From contig NZ_KB235948.1 in assembly GCF_000332335.1 (NCBI RefSeq), positions 2,730,440-2,740,512 of the forward strand: a DNA stretch of 10,073 nucleotides, given 5' to 3'. Numbering within the stretch: the first letter of the stretch is position 1; each line of letters opens with the position of its first letter. Of this stretch, positions 628 through 10,073 are shown in pieces. The notes under the pieces were generated by a model, which made no database searches, was not told where the DNA came from, and saw nothing but the letters and a program-made list of their open reading frames with translations. Origin of the DNA: Oscillatoria sp. PCC 10802 (GTDB taxonomy: Bacteria; Cyanobacteriota; Cyanobacteriia; Cyanobacteriales; Oscillatoriaceae). A program made the position numbers and the translations under genes.

Positions 628-648
628 GAGACTGTTGGCGAAGTGATA

Positions 649-712
649 GGGGGTTTTACCCCACCCCCAACCCCTCACCGTTAACGGGGAGGGGAGCTTT
701 CTGGGAACCCTT
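649..712. repeat. G/C-rich palindromic mini-repeat, copy R1 (CCCCACCCCCAACCCCTCACC-GTTAAC-GGGGAGGGGA followed by GCTTTCTGGGAACCC).
   Basis: Shares CACCCCCAACCCCTC plus a hairpin with the reverse complement of 7431-7470. Shares TTCTGGGAACC with 6643-6660. Confidence 0.6.
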
Positions 713-796
713 GTTCTCCCCTTTCTCGTCTTTTATCGAAAAAAAACCCGCACATTTTGAAAGTCTCGCTCTACTCTTAGCCCGCGTTGAGCGAAG

Positions 797-853
797 AGTA
801 GATCGATACTCTCAAAAATTGCGGGGTGTTTCTCTCATTTGATTCTCACGGCT
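797..853. repeat. Copy B of the ~60-bp direct repeat (AGTAGATCGATACTCTCAAAAATTGCGGGGTGTTTCTCTCATTTGATTCTCACGGC). Preceded by hairpin TCTACTCTT-N15-AAGAGTAGA (768-800).
   Basis: Direct alignment with 410-475. Confidence 0.7.
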
Positions 854-1101
854 CACATTCTTGTGATTTCACTTTTTCTTTATAAATCACCCGCCCACCG
901 GCTCTCTCTTTCGGTAGAATTTAGTAGCCGGCTCTGACAAATGTAGCCGGAGATACAGCCAGTTAAATCAATATGAGCTATAATCATAGAAGCCGGCGCA
1001 AACAGGCGTTGCAGATGTGTGGGATGATGGGGTTCCCCGGTGGTCTAAGATGTTAATTACATAACAGCCCCTGACAAGATAAAACAAAGGAAATCTCTCT
1101 T

Positions 1102-2463
1102 ATGGCAGATGCAATTGAAAAGCAGCCCCCTCACCATGTCGTGATTGTCGGAGGCGGTTTTGGCGGACTTTATGCGGCGCAGGCGCTCCGTCGCGCCCCG
1201 GTTAAGGTGACGCTGATTGACAAGCGCAATTTTCACCTATTTCAGCCCCTCCTGTACCAAGTCGCCACCGGCACCCTGTCGCCGGCGGACATTTCCTCAC
1301 CGCTGCGGGCTGTGCTCAGCCGCAACAAGAATACCACAGTCCTGCTGGGTGAGGTGACAGATATTGACGCGCAAGGGCAAAAAGTTATCATGCGCGGGGG
1401 AGAGGTGAGTTATGATACCTTAATTGTAGCCACCGGCGCGAGCCACCACTACTTCGGAAAAGACGAGTGGGAGCCGTTTGCGCCCGGTTTGAAAACGGTG
1501 GAAGGGGCGCTAGAAATCCGCCGGCGCGTTTTCATGGCTTTTGAAGCGGCGGAAAAGGAAACTGACGCGGAAAAACGGCAAGCGTGGCTGACTTTTGCCA
1601 TTGTGGGGGGTGGTCCAACGGGTGTGGAATTAGCCGGCGCTATTGCGGAACTCGCCCACAATACGCTGAAGGACGATTTCCGCAATATTGACACAACGGA
1701 AGCGGAAATAGTATTATTGGAAGGGACGGATCGGATTCTGCCGCCTTACCCGACGGCACTGTCAGCAGAAGCGGAACAAGCCCTGCACCGGCTGGGGGTG
1801 AGAGTGCGGACAAAAACCCTGGTGACGAAGATAGAAGGCGATACGGTTGCGGTGCGCGAGGGGGAGAAAGAAGAGGAGATAAAAGCGCGAACCGTGCTGT
1901 GGGCGGCTGGGGTGAAAGCTTCTAAGCTGGGACAGGTTTTGGCGCAGCGAGCCGGCGCTCAACTCGACAGAGTGGGGCGGGTGATTGTGGAGCCGGATTT
2001 GAGTGTGGGGGGATATGGGAATATTTTTGTGATTGGGGATTTGGCGAATTATTCCCATCAGGAGGGGAAACCGCTACCGGGTATCGCGCCGGTGGCGATG
2101 CAGGAAGGGGAATATGTGGCGAAGCTGATTAAAGAGCGGCTGAAAGGCAACAGTGCGCCGGCTTTCCGGTATGTGGATACCGGCAGTTTGGCGGTGATTG
2201 GGCGGAATGCGGCTGTGGTGGATTTGGGGTATGTGAAGCTGTCGGGTTTCCTGGCGTGGCTGATTTGGGTGTTTGTGCACATCTACTTTTTGATTGAGTT
2301 TGACAATAAACTGGTGGTGATGCTGCAGTGGGGGTGGAATTATTTCACGCGCAAGGGCGGCGCTCGCTTGATTACGGGGGATGAGTCTGTGGGGCGCATC
2401 GCCGTGGATGAGGGGGGGAATTATTCCGTGCCGGTGGGTAAGAAAGAGCCGGTGGAGGTGTAG
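1102..2463 (+). CDS. ndh: Type II NADH:quinone oxidoreductase (NDH-2, FAD-dependent pyridine nucleotide-disulfide oxidoreductase family), 453 aa.
   Basis: N-terminal Rossmann FAD motif VVIVGGGFGGLYAA. Second dinucleotide-binding motif FAIVGGGPTGVELAG. Hydrophobic C-terminal stretch FLAWLIWVFVHIYFLI typical of NDH-2 membrane anchoring. ATG start with AAGGAAA about 12 nt upstream. Confidence 0.9.
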   Translation: MADAIEKQPPHHVVIVGGGFGGLYAAQALRRAPVKVTLIDKRNFHLFQPLLYQVATGTLSPADISSPLRAVLSRNKNTTVLLGEVTDIDAQGQKVIMRGGEVSYDTLIVATGASHHYFGKDEWEPFAPGLKTVEGALEIRRRVFMAFEAAEKETDAEKRQAWLTFAIVGGGPTGVELAGAIAELAHNTLKDDFRNIDTTEAEIVLLEGTDRILPPYPTALSAEAEQALHRLGVRVRTKTLVTKIEGDTVAVREGEKEEEIKARTVLWAAGVKASKLGQVLAQRAGAQLDRVGRVIVEPDLSVGGYGNIFVIGDLANYSHQEGKPLPGIAPVAMQEGEYVAKLIKERLKGNSAPAFRYVDTGSLAVIGRNAAVVDLGYVKLSGFLAWLIWVFVHIYFLIEFDNKLVVMLQWGWNYFTRKGGARLITGDESVGRIAVDEGGNYSVPVGKKEPVEV

Positions 2464-3106: not shown

Positions 3107-4018
3107 CTACCGGGGTATATAATTGACAATTATGTCAGCTTTTAGCCAGCCTCGTCCCAAGTAGTCTACGATTATGCCGCCTATTCTTCTGACTCCCTTT
3201 CCTTGCAAATGGGCGTACACGTCCACACAATTTGGTTGTCCGGCAACAATCTCAATCTTTTCAAAATAGGAATAGCCTCCATCAGAAATCATTAAGGGGG
3301 GTTGCCAATTCACAATCTCGCGGGCTTCTGGAACGCAAAACCTTTGAACGACTTGGCGATTGTCTGTATGATCTACACGCACGTCAAAGCGAAAGGTTCG
3401 CTGTTGCACTGGTGGTGGGGGAGGTGGGGGAAGTGGGGGAGCATCATGAAAACTTTTGAGGTTAGGGAACTCTTCAAAAATAACCTTTGTGGGCACTCCA
3501 TACCCACCTAAATTACTATAAATGTTGCGACTATCACTAATAATGCCGCACACCTTTCCGGTGTTTTCATTTAGCAAGGGTGAACCGCTGAATCCAGGAG
3601 CAGCTTGCCCCTCAGTGAATTTGATCAATTCTGGGTTTCTCCCGCAGACACCTTCACATTTATACGTTGCTGATTCCCCCTTGAAATGACTAATTTCAGT
3701 ATAGCCATAGGTGGAAAAGGAGTCACCGACTTGGAAAGACTCATCCAAAGACACGCAAGGTTGTCTGGGAATACTATTATTTAACCGGATAAGTGCTAAA
3801 TCAACTTTAGCAGTATCTTCCGCTCTTCCCACAACTGTGGCGGGGTATTCTTGATTTTGCCAGTAAACCGTGACCGACTGCTGATCCTTAACCACATGAG
3901 CGCAGGTGAGAATCAGCCCCTCAGCAGCCACAAAAAATCCTGTTCCGCTCTCTGTATTTGCACTTATCCGCACAGTGCATTGTTTCAACTGCTCGCACAG
4001 CTCGTTCAGATCCGTCAT
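3107..4018 (-). CDS. Cytoplasmic trypsin-like serine peptidase (S1/chymotrypsin fold, compact Trypsin_2-like), 303 aa. Carries a poly-proline linker (PPLPPPPPPPV) and an unassigned ~100-aa C-terminal domain.
   Basis: Catalytic triad in canonical order and context: His in GLILTCAHVV, Asp in VDLALIRL, Ser in GFSGSPLL. No signal peptide. ATG start with GAGG about 12 nt upstream. Lies 44 bp downstream of the co-oriented small ORF. Confidence 0.8.
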   Translation of the reverse strand: MTDLNELCEQLKQCTVRISANTESGTGFFVAAEGLILTCAHVVKDQQSVTVYWQNQEYPATVVGRAEDTAKVDLALIRLNNSIPRQPCVSLDESFQVGDSFSTYGYTEISHFKGESATYKCEGVCGRNPELIKFTEGQAAPGFSGSPLLNENTGKVCGIISDSRNIYSNLGGYGVPTKVIFEEFPNLKSFHDAPPLPPPPPPPVQQRTFRFDVRVDHTDNRQVVQRFCVPEAREIVNWQPPLMISDGGYSYFEKIEIVAGQPNCVDVYAHLQGKGVRRIGGIIVDYLGRGWLKADIIVNYIPR

Positions 4019-4061
4019 CCCCTTCTTGCCTCGCTAATAGCCAAAAACTACATGTTGACCT

Positions 4062-4412
4062 TCAGTTGCTTGAAGCATCGCGTGTTGGAATGTCTTCCTT
4101 TGCCCACTCCATAGTAATTTCTAGGTTTCCCTTGCTAGAGCCTTTTACAATCAGTGCTGTTAGCTGTCCCGACTCTAGTGCAACTTCTAACCCTAATTTT
4201 ACACTCGTTTTAGTAGGCTTTACCTGCTGCAAATGGTTGACTATCGCAGCGGCAATCCCCTCAATTGAATTAGTTAAATTATCCAAAGATAAGATTTGAG
4301 ATGAAGAGCTAATCTTCTGAGAGCCACCCAGCATCCTTGCTTCAATGTTTACCTCCTGGCCATTCGGAAGCTTAACTCGAACAATTTCTGTGCGTTCTGC
4401 GCCAGATTGCAT
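4062..4412 (-). CDS. Small soluble protein, 116 aa, co-transcribed immediately upstream of the trypsin-like peptidase. Possible trypsin-co-occurring (Trypco-like) partner, regulator or substrate.
   Basis: ATG start preceded by a strong SD (CTAAGGAGAAGAAATT-ATG). Same strand as the peptidase with a 44-bp gap. Beta-rich pattern SVKLGLEVALESGQLTALIVKGSSKGNLEITMEW. No TM or signal peptide. AT-richer than the flanking genes. Confidence 0.6.
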   Translation of the reverse strand: MQSGAERTEIVRVKLPNGQEVNIEARMLGGSQKISSSSQILSLDNLTNSIEGIAAAIVNHLQQVKPTKTSVKLGLEVALESGQLTALIVKGSSKGNLEITMEWAKEDIPTRDASSN

Positions 4413-5018
4413 AATTTCTTCTCCTTAGAGATTGAGGTATTGTTTTGAATCTGTCCGTGAGCCCCCCACCCAAACCCATCCAGCCGAGCTGGGGAACTCA
4501 TCAGCCTTTTTCCCACCACCCTCACCGCCATCCGGAAACTTTTTACATTTCTTCATCAACGAGCCTCCGAACCCCCCCAGCACCGGCACCCAACTCACTC
4601 CCCTCCCCCGCCCCCAGAATGCCGGCACGCCAGAGCCCCACCGGCTAAGTCGCTGGAGTCTTCAACCGGATGTCTTAAAATATCTGCCTTAGCCCAAATC
4701 GCGTAAACTCTACGCTGAAAGCATTTACGCTGCTAACGCCCGCAAAAGATTGCGTATTTTCCGGCAGAATACATAAGCAAACGCCCCCCACCGGCAGGCT
4801 CGCTCGGCGCACCGGCAGCCGGTGTGTTGCGCCAAGTTGCCGGTGGCTTCCCCAGCACCCAATATAGCGGCAAAGCCGGTGTTGCACAGAGCTGAAGAAC
4901 CCCGTGGGGTTAAATCCTGTTGCTGTAAACGCGACTCCCGACACTATCCCTCTTTATACAACAAGCAAATTAAAAGCGCAACCCCTTGCGATCCCCACCC
5001 CCACCAAACAGCTACAGC

Positions 5019-6383
5019 TTATTCCAGAGAGAGCTCGCAGCTCTCCTCACTAACCGGCACAGCCTCCGGAGCCAGCAAGTTAACTTTCACGTTTTGCCGG
5101 ATAGGAATTTCAATTGCAAACTCCGCTCCCCGCCCGGGCGCTGAAACACAAACAAGCCGCCCGCCGTGTTTTTTCACCACAATCTGGTAGCTAATGGACA
5201 GCCCCAAGCCGGTGCCGCTCCCCACCGGCTTAGTCGTAAAAAACGGGTCAAATATTCTATGAAGCACATCTTCACTCATGCCCGGCCCATTGTCAATAAT
5301 CCGGATTCTCACGCAGTCAAAGGAAGACACTTCAGTGCGAATCCGAATGCAGGGAAAAAACCCTGACTTGTCACGAGAGGAACCATCACCCCCCACTTGC
5401 GAATTCCCACACCCCATCCCTTCTTCAAGGGCATCAATCGCATTCGTAAGAATATGCATAAACACTTGGTTTAGCTCGCCGGCGTAGCAGGTAACTTCTG
5501 GAACATCCCCGTACTCTTTAACCACTTCGATATCAGCCAGACGCCCGTCTTTTTTGAACCGGTGCTGCAAAAATAGCAGCGTGCTGTCAATGCATTCGTG
5601 AATGTTCACCGGCTTGATATCCGATTCATTCAGCCGGGAAAAAGTCCGCAAACTCAACACCATATTGCGGATGCGATCGGCTCCCACTTTCATCGAATCC
5701 AGAATTTTTTGCACATCCTCAACCATAAATTCCAGGTCGATGCTCTCAGTAGCCGCTTTAATCTCCGGTGCCGGATTGGGGTAAGTTTTTTGGTAGAGGT
5801 CGAGCAGATTGAGCAATTCTTGAATATAGCTATTGATCGGGAACAGATTCCCGTAAATAAAGCTGATGGGGTTGTTAATTTCGTGGGCGACACCCGCCAC
5901 TATCTGCCCCAAGCTGGACATTTTAGCCGCCTGAATCACTTGCGCTTGGGTGGCGCGAAGTTCCGAGAGCGTTTGTTCCAGCGTTTTTGTCAGAGTGCGC
6001 ATTTTGACGTGCGCATTGATGCGAGCCAAAACCTCCTCTTGCTGGAATGGCTTGGTAATGTAATCCACTGCGCCCATAGAAAACCCCTTCACCTTATCCA
6101 CCGTCTCAGAAAGAGCCGTCATAAAAATCACGGGGATGTCTTTCGTTGCCTCATTTGCCTTCAGCCGCCGGCAAGTTTCAAACCCGTCGATTCCGGGCAT
6201 CATCACATCCAGCAAAATCAGAGCCGGCGGGTCGTATTGCACCTTGCGGATAGCACTTTCTCCATCTCGCGCTACCCGCACACCAAACCCAGCTTGATTC
6301 AAAACCGCAGAGAGCAAACTCAAATTGGCCGGGGTGTCATCGACGATTAAGATAGCAGCTATATCACCCTTTTTATCGTTCAT
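5019..6383 (-). CDS. Hybrid two-component protein: N-terminal receiver (REC) domain fused to a histidine kinase (HisKA + HATPase_c). 454 aa from the ATG at 6383, or 473 aa if the TTG at 6440 is used.
   Basis: REC acidic pocket (LIVDD ... LILLDVMMPGIDG ... K in DYITKPF). H-box AHEINNPISF. N/G boxes IIDNGPGM and GTGLGLSIS. The ORF-track start at 6440 is a TTG. An in-frame ATG (MNDKKGD...) at 6383 gives a canonical receiver N-terminus. Confidence 0.85.
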   Translation of the reverse strand: MNDKKGDIAAILIVDDTPANLSLLSAVLNQAGFGVRVARDGESAIRKVQYDPPALILLDVMMPGIDGFETCRRLKANEATKDIPVIFMTALSETVDKVKGFSMGAVDYITKPFQQEEVLARINAHVKMRTLTKTLEQTLSELRATQAQVIQAAKMSSLGQIVAGVAHEINNPISFIYGNLFPINSYIQELLNLLDLYQKTYPNPAPEIKAATESIDLEFMVEDVQKILDSMKVGADRIRNMVLSLRTFSRLNESDIKPVNIHECIDSTLLFLQHRFKKDGRLADIEVVKEYGDVPEVTCYAGELNQVFMHILTNAIDALEEGMGCGNSQVGGDGSSRDKSGFFPCIRIRTEVSSFDCVRIRIIDNGPGMSEDVLHRIFDPFFTTKPVGSGTGLGLSISYQIVVKKHGGRLVCVSAPGRGAEFAIEIPIRQNVKVNLLAPEAVPVSEESCELSLE

Positions 6384-6642
6384 AGTTATTTTTTTATCGC
6401 TGTTTTTTATTTGAGAAAACGGCTGAGCGAAAGACAACAAAGGAGGGGACGAAGTGAGCCGGCGGGTTGAGGGCTCGAAGTAAGTCTGCCTAGCAAACGC
6501 AGAACCTGCGACCTATTTTACCACCAGTCGTCCCAAGATTTGCCACTTGCTGCCGGTGAGCCCAACAATCTTTCCCAAAACTCCCACTGCAGCCATTTCC
6601 GCCCCCTGCCGGCGCTACATCGCTCCGTGCCGGTGCCGGTGC

Positions 6643-7074: not shown

Positions 7075-8661
7075 TTACTTCGCGTAGTTGCGCAGCACCG
7101 GCACTAAATACTGCGCCAGCGTAAACGCATCGACCCCCAGCTGACTCCGCTCCTGCGCCGCCAGAATGCCGGCGCTCGCGTGCCACCACACCGCTAGTTT
7201 GCATGAGTCTTCAACCGGCTTTTCCGCAACAGCCGCCTGCGCCCACAAGCCCCCCATCAGCCCCGTAAGCACATCCCCGCTGCCGCCGCGAGCCAAAGCC
7301 GGCGTACTTTCCGGCTGCACCCACACCGTACCGTCCGGATGCGCCACTGCCGTTCGCGCCCCCTTCAGCAGCACGACAGCCCCAGTTTGCATCGCCGCCG
7401 CCCGCACAGCAGCAATTCTGCCTCCGTATCTCCCCTCTCCCTCAATGGGAGAGGGGTTGGGGGTGAGGGTGTCTTCTGGAAACAAACGCTTGAACTCACC
7501 GAGATGGGGCGTCAGCACTGCCGGCGCTCGCCGCTCAGTCAGTGTTGCAATCGCCCCCAGATGCGCCAGCACATTCAGCCCGTCCGCATCCAAAACCAGA
7601 GGGGGAGAGCTCTCCAGCACCGCCTCCACCACCGGCGCAGCCCCCACCGTCAGCCCCGGACCGCACGCGATCGCACTGTAAGAATTCAAATCGGCACCTG
7701 GCGGCAGACCTGCGATCGCCCCCGCCTCCGTTTCCGGACACCCGACAATCAGCGCCTCTGGCAGCTGCAAACTCAGCAGCGGCTTAACCGACTCCGGAAC
7801 CGCCACCGAGAGCATCCCCACCCCAGACGCCCGCGCCCCCAAACCCGCCAAAATTGCCGCGCCGGTGTACTTGCGCGAACCGCAAACCAGCAGCAAGTGC
7901 CCCATCTTGTACTTGTGCGACGCCGGCGGGCGGGGGATGGGGAGGTGCGACAGCGCGACTGCCGGTGTGATGCGCCGGATTGCCGGTGGCTCGCCGAGTA
8001 CCGCCCGGATATCCGCCAGCGGCAAATCAAAATCAACCAGCTCCGCCTCACCAATATACTCTAGCGCCCCATCTTGCAGGAACGCCAGCTTCCACAGCCC
8101 CAAGCAAAACGTCCGCGCCGCCCGAATCGCAGTGCCCAAAACCTCGCCGGTATCCGTGTGCAGCCCCGAAGGAATATCCACACTCAGCACCGGCACCCCC
8201 CAGCGATTCACCTCATCGATCGCCGCCGCAACCGCACCGTCGAGCGAACGCTCCAACCCAAAGCCAAACAGCCCGTCAACCAGCAAGTCACACCCTTGCA
8301 GCGGCTCAACTTCCTGATAGAACGGAATTCCCAGACTCGCCACATACCGGGCGTGCTGTCCCGTCAGTTCCTTAAGCTTAGAAAACGGCGAATACACCGC
8401 CACCTCAAAACCCCGCCAGTGCAGCTCCCTAGCCACAACCAAAGCGTCCCCCCCATTGTGCCCCGGACCAACCAGCACACCGGCACGCACCGGCTGCCGG
8501 TATAGCTCCTGAATCCGCTTCGCAACCAGTCCCGCCACCTTTTCCATCAGCGCCGGCACCGGCATTCCCGCCTCAAACACGCGCCCCTCAATCGCACGCA
8601 TTTGCTCAGCCGTCACAGCAAACTGGTGAATCTGCTCAACCCTGTCCTGAATTCGCCCCAC
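7075..8661 (-). CDS. nnr: Bifunctional NAD(P)H-hydrate repair enzyme Nnr, 528 aa, GTG start. N-terminal NAD(P)H-hydrate epimerase (YjeF_N) fused to C-terminal ADP-dependent (S)-NAD(P)H-hydrate dehydratase (YjeF_C, carbohydrate-kinase fold).
   Basis: N-terminal VTAEQMRAIEG ... LVGPGHNGGDALVVAREL. C-terminal GGSGDVLTGL. An upstream in-frame stop at 8686-8688 rules out a longer N-terminus. Confidence 0.9.
   Translation of the reverse strand: MGRIQDRVEQIHQFAVTAEQMRAIEGRVFEAGMPVPALMEKVAGLVAKRIQELYRQPVRAGVLVGPGHNGGDALVVARELHWRGFEVAVYSPFSKLKELTGQHARYVASLGIPFYQEVEPLQGCDLLVDGLFGFGLERSLDGAVAAAIDEVNRWGVPVLSVDIPSGLHTDTGEVLGTAIRAARTFCLGLWKLAFLQDGALEYIGEAELVDFDLPLADIRAVLGEPPAIRRITPAVALSHLPIPRPPASHKYKMGHLLLVCGSRKYTGAAILAGLGARASGVGMLSVAVPESVKPLLSLQLPEALIVGCPETEAGAIAGLPPGADLNSYSAIACGPGLTVGAAPVVEAVLESSPPLVLDADGLNVLAHLGAIATLTERRAPAVLTPHLGEFKRLFPEDTLTPNPSPIEGEGRYGGRIAAVRAAAMQTGAVVLLKGARTAVAHPDGTVWVQPESTPALARGGSGDVLTGLMGGLWAQAAVAEKPVEDSCKLAVWWHASAGILAAQERSQLGVDAFTLAQYLVPVLRNYAK
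7426..7484. repeat. Mini-repeat copy R3 inside the nnr coding sequence: TCCCCTCTCCC-TCAAT-GGGAGAGGGGA, then TTGGGGGTGAGGGTG, then TCTTCTGGAAAC. On the - strand it encodes the in-frame peptide FPEDTLTPNPSPIEGEGRYGG.
   Basis: The reverse complement matches R1 (CACCCCCAACCCCTC plus hairpin). It shares a 17-mer with R2. The translation was verified codon by codon. Confidence 0.6.
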
Positions 8662-9029: not shown

Positions 9030-9698
9030 CTAAAAATTCCCGTAATAAACCCGTGCGTTCTTCAAACCAAAATCCTGGAGATAGAAGTTCCAGCGCTCTG
9101 CCGTATCCCGGTCAGCAAATGGGCCCACCAGAACGTATGGCCCCTGCGGGCTGTCTTGCGGGCTGACCCCGAAATTCACCAGTCCCAGCAGGCGCACTTG
9201 CTCTGCAGTCGCCTGCAAGTCCCTCTCGCGAGCGGGGATAACCACAAAATAGCCGGTGCCATAACTGACGGGGGTCGGTGTGTCCGGTATGTTCGGTATG
9301 TTCGGGATGTCCGGCACCGGCGGTCTTGCCTGCCGGCTCTCGATTGAGGCAATCTCAGCCTTGATGTACTGCGCTTCCAGATCCCTTTCGAGCCGCTTAG
9401 CCCGATCTTTATCGTAAAAAACATTGGCTTGGACGACCACCCGCCCCTTGTACTCCACCAGCTGTGCCTGGGGCTCTATCCTGCGCACCTGTTCCAGCAG
9501 TAGCAGGCTGTTCCCATTGACATAAACCAAGTAGTACCTGTCCGACCTTTGGGCTAGTATTTGGGACTGCGCAGCCTCTGGGAGAGGGGTTTGTCCGAGA
9601 GGTTGAGCCCCGGCGGCGGTATTCCACGCCAGTAACAAACACCCCCCCAAAAGCAGCCGAGCGGGGGTGAGCACAGAGGGGACCGAGCTTTCAGGCAT
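9030..9698 (-). CDS. Probable secreted or lipoprotein with SPOR-like (peptidoglycan-binding) repeat architecture, ~222 aa from the ATG at 9698. Contains a tandem IPNIPNIPD segment.
   Basis: N-terminus MPESSVPSVLTPARLLLGGCLLLAWNTAAGAQP is signal-peptide-like, with a possible lipobox LGGC. Two Y-rich beta modules are present (YYLVYVNGNS...KRLERDLEAQ and YVLVGPFADRDTAERWNFYLQDFGLKNARVY, the latter resembling the SPOR consensus Y-V-VGPF). The 67 codons upstream in the ORF track (MDFF...) look non-coding. Confidence 0.55.
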   Translation of the reverse strand: MPESSVPSVLTPARLLLGGCLLLAWNTAAGAQPLGQTPLPEAAQSQILAQRSDRYYLVYVNGNSLLLLEQVRRIEPQAQLVEYKGRVVVQANVFYDKDRAKRLERDLEAQYIKAEIASIESRQARPPVPDIPNIPNIPDTPTPVSYGTGYFVVIPARERDLQATAEQVRLLGLVNFGVSPQDSPQGPYVLVGPFADRDTAERWNFYLQDFGLKNARVYYGNF

Positions 9699-9867
9699 AT
9701 CAGTCGCGGATTGACCAAAACGAGGGGACGCCTGTATATACTTATTTCCGGGGGGAGCGCCAGCAAAAGTGCTGAGCGTGCTGGCGCGGGCGTCGCGCCG
9801 GCAAAGCCGGCAACAGCCAAAAAATCGAGACAGCAATCCGGGAAATTCATTTGGTTGGCTGTGCTCA

Positions 9868-10073
9868 GGGGAGCATCCCGGTTGTGGGAAGAAGTCCATA
9901 TCAATGCGACAGTGATTTCAGCAGGGGGTAGGAGGAGAAGATTTTTGGCCAGCTGAATCCCGGCAACGGGATTGAAACACTATACCGAACGGGAGCATCC
10001 CCGTTGTGCAAAGAAGCCCAAATGAATGCGACAATGATTTCAGCAGGGGGTAGGAGCGGATGATTTTTGGCCA
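9868..10073. repeat. Two 84-bp direct repeats (9868-9951 and 9990-10073, ~88% identity, period 122 bp). They are separated by a 38-bp spacer holding a perfect 7-bp hairpin with a GNRA loop (AATCCCG-GCAA-CGGGATT, 9956-9973). The array runs to the window end.
   Basis: Aligned by eye: GGGAGCATCCC(C/G)GTTGTG..AAGAAG.CCA.AT.AATGCGACA.TGATTTCAGCAGGGGGTAGGAG.....GATTTTTGGCCA. Confidence 0.8.

Follow-up and report, generated by a model that had tools for sequence, protein, structure and literature searches.

Two neighbouring copies of a 110-nt non-coding element occupy the right edge of a 10,073-nt stretch of DNA from Oscillatoria sp. PCC 10802 (the window, meaning the whole stretch that was analysed), upstream of a gene encoding a SPOR-domain protein. 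They are probably two independent insertions of a non-autonomous element that resembles miniature inverted-repeat transposable elements (MITEs) and is dispersed in the Oscillatoria princeps clade. The left end of the element corresponds to a terminal inverted repeat (TIR) of a MITE, and its right end appears to be part of a type I-D CRISPR repeat.

Two copies of a 110-nt unit

A repeat search of the window identified 83-nt copies at positions 9869-9951 and 9991-10073, which are 88% identical, lie 122 nt apart from start to start and are far beyond chance; the second extends to the final base of the window (10073). Direct reading of the sequence shows a perfect 7-bp hairpin, AATCCCG-GCAA-CGGGATT (9956-9973, plus strand), with a GNRA loop, followed by GAAAC (9974-9978). 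A preliminary description of this DNA had recorded two copies of about 88% identity with a 122-bp period and a hairpin, all of which are real, and had parsed them as 84-bp units with a 38-bp spacer. This parsing fails in an alignment to 19 other copies (labels from L001 to L040 denote sequence loci or contigs retrieved for comparison). In the alignment, homology starts abruptly at GGGAGCATCCC and stops abruptly at CGGGATTGAAAC, with unrelated flanks on either side, and the true unit is 110 nt long (GGGAGCATCCC...CGGGATTGAAAC, 9869-9978). Because the aligned unit spans 110 nt, the hairpin belongs to copy 1 as its 3′ end instead of being a spacer, and the sole sequence between the copies is the 12-mer ACTATACCGAAC (9979-9990).

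Copy 1 (9869-9978, plus strand) is a full-length match to the family profile (nhmmer, E=1e-38) and belongs to a subfamily characterized by ATATCAAT and GGAGGAGAAGA. Its TIR-like left terminus, GGGAGCATCCCG (9869-9880, plus strand), is kept in nearly all copies. Of copy 2 (9991-10073, plus strand; nhmmer, E=1e-28, model positions 11-99), the first 83 of 110 nt are included before the window stops, and it represents a different subfamily (CCCCGTTG, AAATGAAT, GGAGCGGATGA). By this comparison, the feature is no periodic array and appears to consist of two complete small mobile elements, the second truncated where the window stops; the pair was not called by Tandem Repeats Finder, run on the window. 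Among the possibilities raised in the preliminary description, an element terminus came nearest, except that two whole small elements are present and not the end of a larger one.

The SPOR-domain gene (9030-9698, minus strand, 222 aa; Pfam SPOR, E=2e-5) has its start codon 170 nt from copy 1, and its upstream region can be compared with relatives that lack the insertions. In L026 and L030, whose SPOR orthologues are 73-74% identical, both window copies are absent, and the flanks and the 12-mer are kept. The 170 nt upstream of the gene are conserved in these empty-site genomes as far as the insertion point (...CTCAG), after which come about 58 unrelated nt, then GTTCGGTATAGT, the reverse complement of ACTATACCGAAC, and then other sequence; GTTCGGTATAGT is exact in L026 and carries two changes in L030. 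Since the 12 nt between the copies are present in these element-free loci, they are native intergenic DNA, flanked on either side by an insertion. In place of the approximately 58 nt of empty-site sequence stands copy 1, which shows no target duplication; it is found at the same site in L033, which has 92% SPOR identity.

The ten differences between the two copies sit on subfamily-diagnostic positions (ATATCAAT versus AAATGAAT, GGAGGAGAAGA versus GGAGCGGATGA and CCCGGTTG versus CCCCGTTG in copies 1 and 2, respectively), and both subfamilies also occur in O. princeps. The O. princeps copies in L015 and L017 share the diagnostic variants of copy 2 and are 96.4% identical to it, and the best match of copy 1 (94.5%) is a minus-strand O. 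princeps copy in L008, compared with 88% between the window copies themselves. As each copy is closer to O. princeps copies than to its neighbour, the pair did not arise by local tandem duplication.

A dispersed family with target duplications

When one genome of each species was scanned with the 22-mer TGATTTCAGCAGGGGGTAGGAG, 19 loci were identified, 15 in O. princeps RMCB-10 and four in two other Oscillatoria metagenome-assembled genomes (two loci being itemized for Oscillatoria sp. Prado101 and one for the other), and a profile search added one further copy. The search for the repeat elsewhere, suggested in the preliminary description, has in this way revealed a dispersed family: O. princeps RMCB-10 carries at least 16 copies, and at least three other lineages have additional ones. 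The family is narrow, as a metagenome scan recovered only the two already-known Prado101 loci. A BLAST search of a phage collection gave no match. Copies are 110-111 nt long throughout, with the exception of an internal duplication in L011, and have a mean pairwise identity of 92%. They lie between genes, with no orientation preference relative to their neighbours. In the alignment, the sole small open reading frame is unconserved between subfamilies; the candidate peptide MNATMISAGGRRRRFLAS was rejected since neither its start nor its stop codon is kept from one subfamily to another. The element is thus short, non-coding and dispersed, with sharp common ends, as is typical of MITEs.

Some variation within the family was observed. 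A hypervariable segment is located at element positions 20-27, where the variants differ by indels, for which reason variability of the diversity-generating retroelement type was rejected. In the L011 element (6044-6178), GTGCAAGCGTT is triplicated internally in the hypervariable segment (element positions 16-27), and in L012 and L021, members of one subfamily, the 3′ ends read GAAA(C/T)GAAAC, a duplication of the terminal pentamer.

Perfect direct repeats abut both ends in seven of 21 copies, with lengths of 11, 9 and, in five cases, 8 nt, and decayed 8-mer duplications were seen in three further copies (6/8, 6/8 and 5/8 matches). As a control, only one in 420 mismatched pairs of left and right flanks reached 5 nt or more. 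For the 9-bp case an empty site is available from another species: L039 and L040 contain a single TTAGGCTTC, whereas L008 and the complete 8.63-Mb O. princeps genome (L035) have TCAGGCTAC-element-TCAGGCTAC. This comparison directly confirms the target duplication, and presence or absence of insertions varies between related genomes. A derivation from IS200/IS605 elements (palindrome-associated transposable elements, PATEs) or from repetitive extragenic palindromes (REP) was considered and rejected, given that duplications are present and the left flanks have no common tetranucleotide.

The termini and a proposed mode of transposition

A different element, 120 nt long, was found at L026 2922-3041 (also in L027 and L028). 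It starts with GGGAGCATCCCG, ends with ...CGGGATGCTCA, has the TIRs GGGAGCATCCCGTTTTTG and TGAGCATCCCGATTATG and a 9-bp target duplication (CCAGCAGAT), and is a classical MITE; an internal 15-bp inverted repeat (GGGCGAAGCATTCGG) was also observed. The 12-nt left terminus of the 110-nt element, GGGAGCATCCCG, is identical to the left TIR of this MITE. At the right end, the reverse complement GTTTCAATCCCGTTTCCG shares the subterminal ATCCCGTTT with the L026 TIRs in the alignment, but not the 6-nt tip. The pattern G-N5-ATCCCG-N-TT fits all four ends of the two elements, and the ends of the 110-nt element match each other at 10 of 19 positions, with the ATCCCG core and the TT inverted. The terminal 12 nt (CGGGATTGAAAC) are nearly invariant, and the 5′ arm of the hairpin is altered in seven of 20 aligned copies (CCC changed to TTT, TCT, TGT, AAA or CCT). 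A nearly invariant terminus combined with a changed opposite arm would fit selection on a transposon end and not on a hairpin.

We propose that the 110-nt element is non-autonomous and would be mobilized in trans, a transposase binding the subterminal motif ATCCCGnTT, which is inverted at both ends of the element and in both TIRs of the L026 MITE, and cutting 6 nt outside it. An autonomous relative would be expected to be a transposase-encoding element of 1-3 kb with such termini (TIR core GAGCATCCCG), for which the IS66 family, with its 8-bp duplications and GTAAGC-type ends, is a candidate. The right end is not a normal TIR: it corresponds to 24-26 nt, or the 3′ two-thirds, of a type I-D CRISPR repeat, whose stem arm (CGGGAT) and 6-nt tail (TGAAAC) mimic a TIR core plus tip. 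A repeat serving as a surrogate TIR would account for the exact coincidence of the element's end with the CRISPR repeat boundary, and Cas proteins need not be invoked. The most likely origin of the element is the capture of a CRISPR repeat as such a surrogate right end. In the window, the two copies would have inserted 170 nt upstream of the SPOR-domain gene, on either side of the native 12-mer. Copy 2 would be expected to end in ...GGCCAGCTGAATCCCGG(N)AACGGGATTGAAAC, 27 bases past the window end. Beyond it, perhaps separated by an 8-9-bp repeat of ...ACCGAAC, native sequence akin to the AGCCCCATGCAGATGGGGGATTTTTTTT of L026 would follow, along with a divergent mnmA gene.

Several observations weigh against the proposal that these are MITE-like insertions. 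The two ends agree at no more than 10 of 19 positions and have different 6-nt tips (GGGAGC versus GTTTCA, the latter in reverse complement), an uncommon asymmetry in the substrate of a transposase; the L026-type MITE is represented by one locus in three assemblies of one lineage; and no transposase gene bounded by these termini was found in about 280 kb of fetched loci, which were searched for inverted pairs of TIR cores and yielded only the L026 120-nt MITE. About ten of the 21 copies have no clear duplication, and the duplication lengths are not constant (8, 9 and 11). In L020 there is a 13-nt near-repeat (12/13), the left copy of which stops 6 nt before the element, and the L010 element is flanked by a 97-nt direct duplication. 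Recombination between copies, or deletions that a transposase causes next to them, would be expected to leave copies without duplication; the spread in length is only partly accounted for. Finally, in the orthologous pair L007/L014 the elements are identical at 109 of 110 positions compared with about 91% in the 400-nt flanks, an excess conservation that gives a hint of selection or gene conversion, as opposed to selfish spread only; no such excess was seen for the window and L033 (element 54/57, flanks 160/170).

The L010 locus (640-1140, minus strand) has features of its own. The 97-nt duplication, 89% identical between its copies, encloses the 110-nt element together with an adjacent hairpin repeat and contains an 11-bp perfect stem (CCAAGAATTGC...GCAATTCTTGG); a short target duplication is absent.

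Homology of the right end to type I-D CRISPR repeats

A scan of viral contigs with AATCCCGGNAACGGGATTGAAAC identified a mini-array, L022, of three 37-nt repeats (CTTTCACATTAATGAATCCCGGCAACGGGATTGAAAC) at a spacing of 74-75 nt. Window positions 9955-9978 are identical to the 3′ end of this repeat (24/24), which bears out the remark in the preliminary description that the hairpin and the following GATTGAAAC resemble a CRISPR repeat terminus. A BLAST search of plasmids gave 24 matches in one plasmid of Gloeothece verrucosa PCC 7822, in a region with a type I-D operon (cas3′-cas10d-cas7d-cas5d-cas6-cas4-cas1d-cas2), after which come a leader and an array whose repeat is CTTTCTATTAAATGAATCCTGGAAACGGGATTGAAAC; the 3′ part of the family consensus differs from this repeat by one base. 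Repeats of the form AATCCC-loop-GGGATTGAAAC have been tabled as the cyanobacterial DR5 or type I-D family (PMC4916379, Table 4). Over the entire repeat-like 37-nt segment (9942-9978, plus strand), of which the last 24 nt (9955-9978) equal real type I-D-family repeats, the consensus matches the PCC 7822 repeat at 28 and the L022 repeat at 27 of 37 positions. The mismatches fall nearly all in the first 13 nt, where only five of 13 positions match real repeats.

A search of the window against Rfam returned no family above threshold. In a focused search of positions 9850-10073 there were eight sub-threshold hits, all to CRISPR-DR models and all sharing the boundary at 9978, the 3′ end of the element, with seven plus-strand hits ending there and one on the minus strand. 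The best of them (DR18) scored 23.5 bits against a gathering score of 50, and none reached its gathering score, so the Rfam check called for in the preliminary description returned sub-threshold CRISPR-DR hits alone. We regard the CRISPR connection as real homology: the right end is a solitary sequence matching a known CRISPR repeat, which Rfam matches in part, below its gathering scores.

The window feature is nevertheless not a CRISPR array. The 85 nt between the repeat-like 37-mers consist of the native 12-mer and the element body, and not of a unique spacer; there are no cas genes among the genes of the window (Pfam); and similarity of the element body to the PCC 7822 type I-D leader or to the sequence upstream of the viral mini-array scored no better than shuffles. 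In this respect the preliminary description, which had called the arrangement the wrong way round for a CRISPR, was right.

In O. princeps, the sole CRISPR array that was seen is built of a different, unrelated repeat. It belongs to RMCB-10 and comprises at least 34 repeats (GTTTCCATTCTTTTGGAGTCCCCAGCGAGTGGGGAC), and two isolated copies of its repeat adjoin a 219-aa gene, these features being recorded at L015 2490-2591 and 4000-7050. The isolated repeats are 0.7 kb away from a copy of the 110-nt element. The same locus contains a 21-nt tandem repeat of 12 copies (4095-4430).

Structure and transcription

The hairpin (9956-9973) lies within the consensus minimum-free-energy fold of the element, and its loop is GAAA in most copies, GCAA in window copy 1 and GTAA in L014. 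Folding of both strands gave structures not significantly more stable than those of shuffled sequences (z = -1.9), and RNAalifold analysis of 20 copies revealed a compensatory change in none of the 22 predicted pairs. A consensus scan of positions 9400-10073 detected no promoter-like or terminator-like sites in or beside the element, and a scan for tRNA and tmRNA genes found none. The element does not qualify as a structured small RNA (sRNA) family. A pair of related sRNA genes, another of the possibilities first raised for the repeats, receives no support from these results or from the dispersal of the copies with target duplications.

Alternative explanations

The right end could be a functional solitary CRISPR repeat, with copies transcribed and the hairpin cut by a type I-D or III Cas6; the product, resembling the RNA anti-CRISPRs of solitary repeat units or CRISPR RNAs (crRNAs), would titrate Cas proteins or give guide-like RNAs from flanking DNA, and the element would be kept for this function. 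This explanation, which we hold to be unlikely, draws on the agreement of the last 24 nt with real type I-D repeats in the orientation of array transcription, on the arrangement of about 73 nt followed by a repeat hairpin, which resembles RacrIF1 (PMC10651486), on C-to-T changes in the 5′ arm that retain G-U pairs on the plus strand alone, on a loop that varies at the N of GNRA only, and on the near identity of the L007/L014 pair. It is countered by the lack of promoter- and terminator-like sites, the unremarkable fold free of compensatory changes, and the degradation of the hairpin 5′ arm in several copies in which the terminal 12 nt are kept. The poor match of the first 13 nt of the 37-mer, the unrelated repeat of the sole O. 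princeps array seen, the absence of orientation bias to neighbouring genes and the ordinary conservation of the window/L033 pair point in the same direction, as does, though as weak evidence, the failure to recognize an O. princeps Cas6 among the 120 best type I-D Cas6 homologues. Were Cas6 processing to occur, RNAs would stop 8 nt before the element end, RNAs downstream would begin with AUUGAAAC, and the matching type I-D or III system would have a repeat ending in AATCCCGGAAACGGGATTGAAAC.

Three further explanations address the arrangement of the copies or the way in which they moved. Mobilization by other means, that is, by target-primed reverse transcription of a small RNA or by Cas1-Cas2-type integration acting on the CRISPR-repeat end, has a small probability. 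Duplications ranging from 0 to 11 nt, the L020 near-repeat with its 6-nt gap at the left junction, 3-5-nt matches in excess of chance among copies without clear duplication, the replacement of 58 nt by copy 1 and a right end that is an exact CRISPR repeat boundary would all be in keeping with it. The CRISPR repeat boundary is a site of Cas1 chemistry. Off-target integration by Cas1-Cas2 is, however, expected to duplicate about one repeat length and not the modal 8 bp, of which there are five perfect examples; a classical TIR-bearing MITE has the same left terminus and subterminal motif, truncated copies and A/T tails were not seen, and copies without duplication are equally expected from inter-copy recombination or transposase-caused deletions. 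A degenerate CRISPR mini-array or leader-plus-repeat unit, with repeats at 9942-9978 and at the unseen end of copy 2, is highly improbable: the 37-mers would recur at 122 nt, and the weak CRISPR-DR hits agree with it, but its 85-nt 'spacer' is composed of the native 12-mer and repeated element body, neither a cas gene in the window nor similarity to the two type I-D leaders was found, and about 20 unrelated loci each have a single unit, with target duplications. Least probable of all, to a degree that we consider negligible, is a local tandem duplication that drifted to 88% identity. Two similar units arranged head to tail at the edge of a contig, with a period of 122 nt, would suggest it, and it corresponds to the long-period tandem repeat of the preliminary description, yet the differences between the copies match subfamily variants of other genomes, each copy is 94-96% identical to distant copies, the 12 nt between them are native and absent elements mark the site in relatives, and Tandem Repeats Finder is silent.

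Genes and other repeats of the window

Besides the SPOR-domain gene, Pfam searches identified an NDH-2 gene (1102-2463, plus strand), a gene pair (3107-4412, minus strand) whose products are a 303-aa trypsin-like peptidase and a 116-aa Trypco1 protein ('trypsin-co-occurring domain'), a hybrid histidine kinase/receiver (5019-6440, minus strand) and a YjeF/Nnr protein (7075-8661, minus strand). The region of the trypsin-like/Trypco1 pair has a G+C content of about 45%, below that of the rest of the window. The true start of the SPOR-domain gene is the ATG at 9698, and an identical 222-aa product is called on Logan contigs. Those contigs end 228 nt upstream of the start, within the first unit. 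Rightward extension, put forward in the preliminary description as a check on the period, reached no further, since every contig that carries the gene breaks inside the repeat. The short-read contigs L001, L002, L033 and L034, which are independent of one another and come from this locus or related ones, also end within a copy. The window edge is probably a contig end caused by the 110-nt repeat. The analysis showed no effect of the copies on the SPOR-domain gene or on CRISPR immunity.

Both window edges lie in repeats, as the left edge falls in a 26-bp tandem repeat and the right edge in an element copy. The former (1-116; GGGCTTCAGCCCAAAAGTTCGTAGTT) comprises 4.5 copies at 98% identity, each unit with a small GGGCT/AGCCC hairpin, and a similar 24-nt tandem repeat (CAGTTTGTAGTTGGGCTTTAGCCC) is present at L015 4434-4481. 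An approximately 48-nt dispersed hairpin repeat, GGAAATCGCGGCTATACAGACGAAGCCCGCCTACGCGGG, forms an inverted pair at 355-402 and 587-634 (88%) with weak Rfam CRISPR-DR28 matches (28.8 and 27.7 bits versus a gathering score of 35); it directly adjoins the 110-nt element in L010 and is also found in the L008 flank. A 51-nt direct repeat (410-460 and 797-847, 90%; AGTAGAGCTAGACTCTCAAAATTTGCGGGGTGTTTCTCTCGTTTGATTCTC) and a 44-nt inverted repeat (738-781 and 791-834) suggest further small repeat families in the 1.1-kb non-coding stretch upstream of NDH-2. Another insertion, of about 105 nt, is present at L039 2491-2640 and in L040; it has a CCCCACCCCCAACC...GCGGGGAGGGGGAG hairpin, ends with ...TTTCAATCATCCTGATGCAACTCC and is bordered by a 23-nt direct duplication, CAGTAGTTTTATGCTGC(C/T)G(G/A)TGG, which is single-copy in O. 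princeps. Hairpins related to this insertion occur at window positions 650-700 and in the flanks of L009, L015 and L020.

Comparison with known systems and implications

The 110-nt element resembles cyanobacterial MITEs in its length, its lack of coding capacity, its multiple intergenic copies with sharp ends and subfamilies, its short target duplications, confirmed by an empty site, and a left terminus identical to the TIR that a classical MITE has in a related genome. It differs from them in its asymmetric ends, of which only the subterminal ATCCCGnTT is inverted and the right one is a CRISPR fragment, in its variable duplication length and in the absence of an autonomous parent from the fetched loci. 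With type I-D (DR5-family) repeats it shares the 3′ 24-26 nt, identical to L022 or differing by one base from Gloeothece PCC 7822, including the stem AATCCCG/CGGGATT, the GNRA loop and the tail ATTGAAAC, which corresponds to the 8-nt crRNA 5′ tag; Cas6 of Anabaena leaves an 8-nt 5′ tag derived from the repeat tail (bioRxiv 10.1101/2020.04.14.041012). Unlike these repeats, it has no array, spacers, leader similarity or cas genes, and its first 13 nt of the 37-mer have diverged (5/13).

In filamentous cyanobacteria of the order Nostocales, sRNA genes of the NsiR1 type are arranged in tandem arrays. The window pair is similar to such arrays in that short non-coding units stand head to tail upstream of a gene in a filamentous cyanobacterium, but consists of only two units of different subfamilies, independently inserted, with no promoter or terminator per unit and with genome-wide dispersal. 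Solitary repeat units (SRUs) of phages and plasmids act as RNA anti-CRISPRs (Racrs; Camara-Wilpert et al. 2023, PMC10651486). Like them, the element carries one CRISPR-repeat-like sequence away from arrays and cas genes on a mobile element, with about 70 nt preceding the hairpin; in contrast to them, it is a chromosomal MITE with many copies per genome and not part of a virus or plasmid, about two-thirds of the repeat is conserved, and no promoter was detected for it.

As a genomic object, a pair of adjacent MITE-like insertions is ordinary, and it explains the contig break; what is unusual is the right end, apparently a captured type I-D CRISPR repeat. Such a pair is also an annotation trap, as it mimics a two-repeat CRISPR or a tandem sRNA array and breaks short-read assemblies. 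The literature searched contained no paper with these sequences and nothing specific on MITE-borne CRISPR repeats, and a chromosomal multi-copy MITE with a solitary CRISPR repeat is undescribed in it. It is conceivable, although doubtful, that a transposon has recruited a type I-D CRISPR repeat as its end and thereby scatters Cas6-recognizable solitary repeats as Racr-like decoys or as seeds of orphan arrays. If they are decoys, with Cas6 or Cascade as their targets, this would be a chromosomal, MITE-borne Racr protecting a transposon family; if they are seeds, they would help to explain the reported fragmentation of arrays in filamentous cyanobacteria. Processing of the repeat by a host Cas6 would constitute a new mode of interaction between transposons and CRISPR, and if the repeat is not processed, the element would still be a case in which a CRISPR repeat serves a transposase in place of a normal end.

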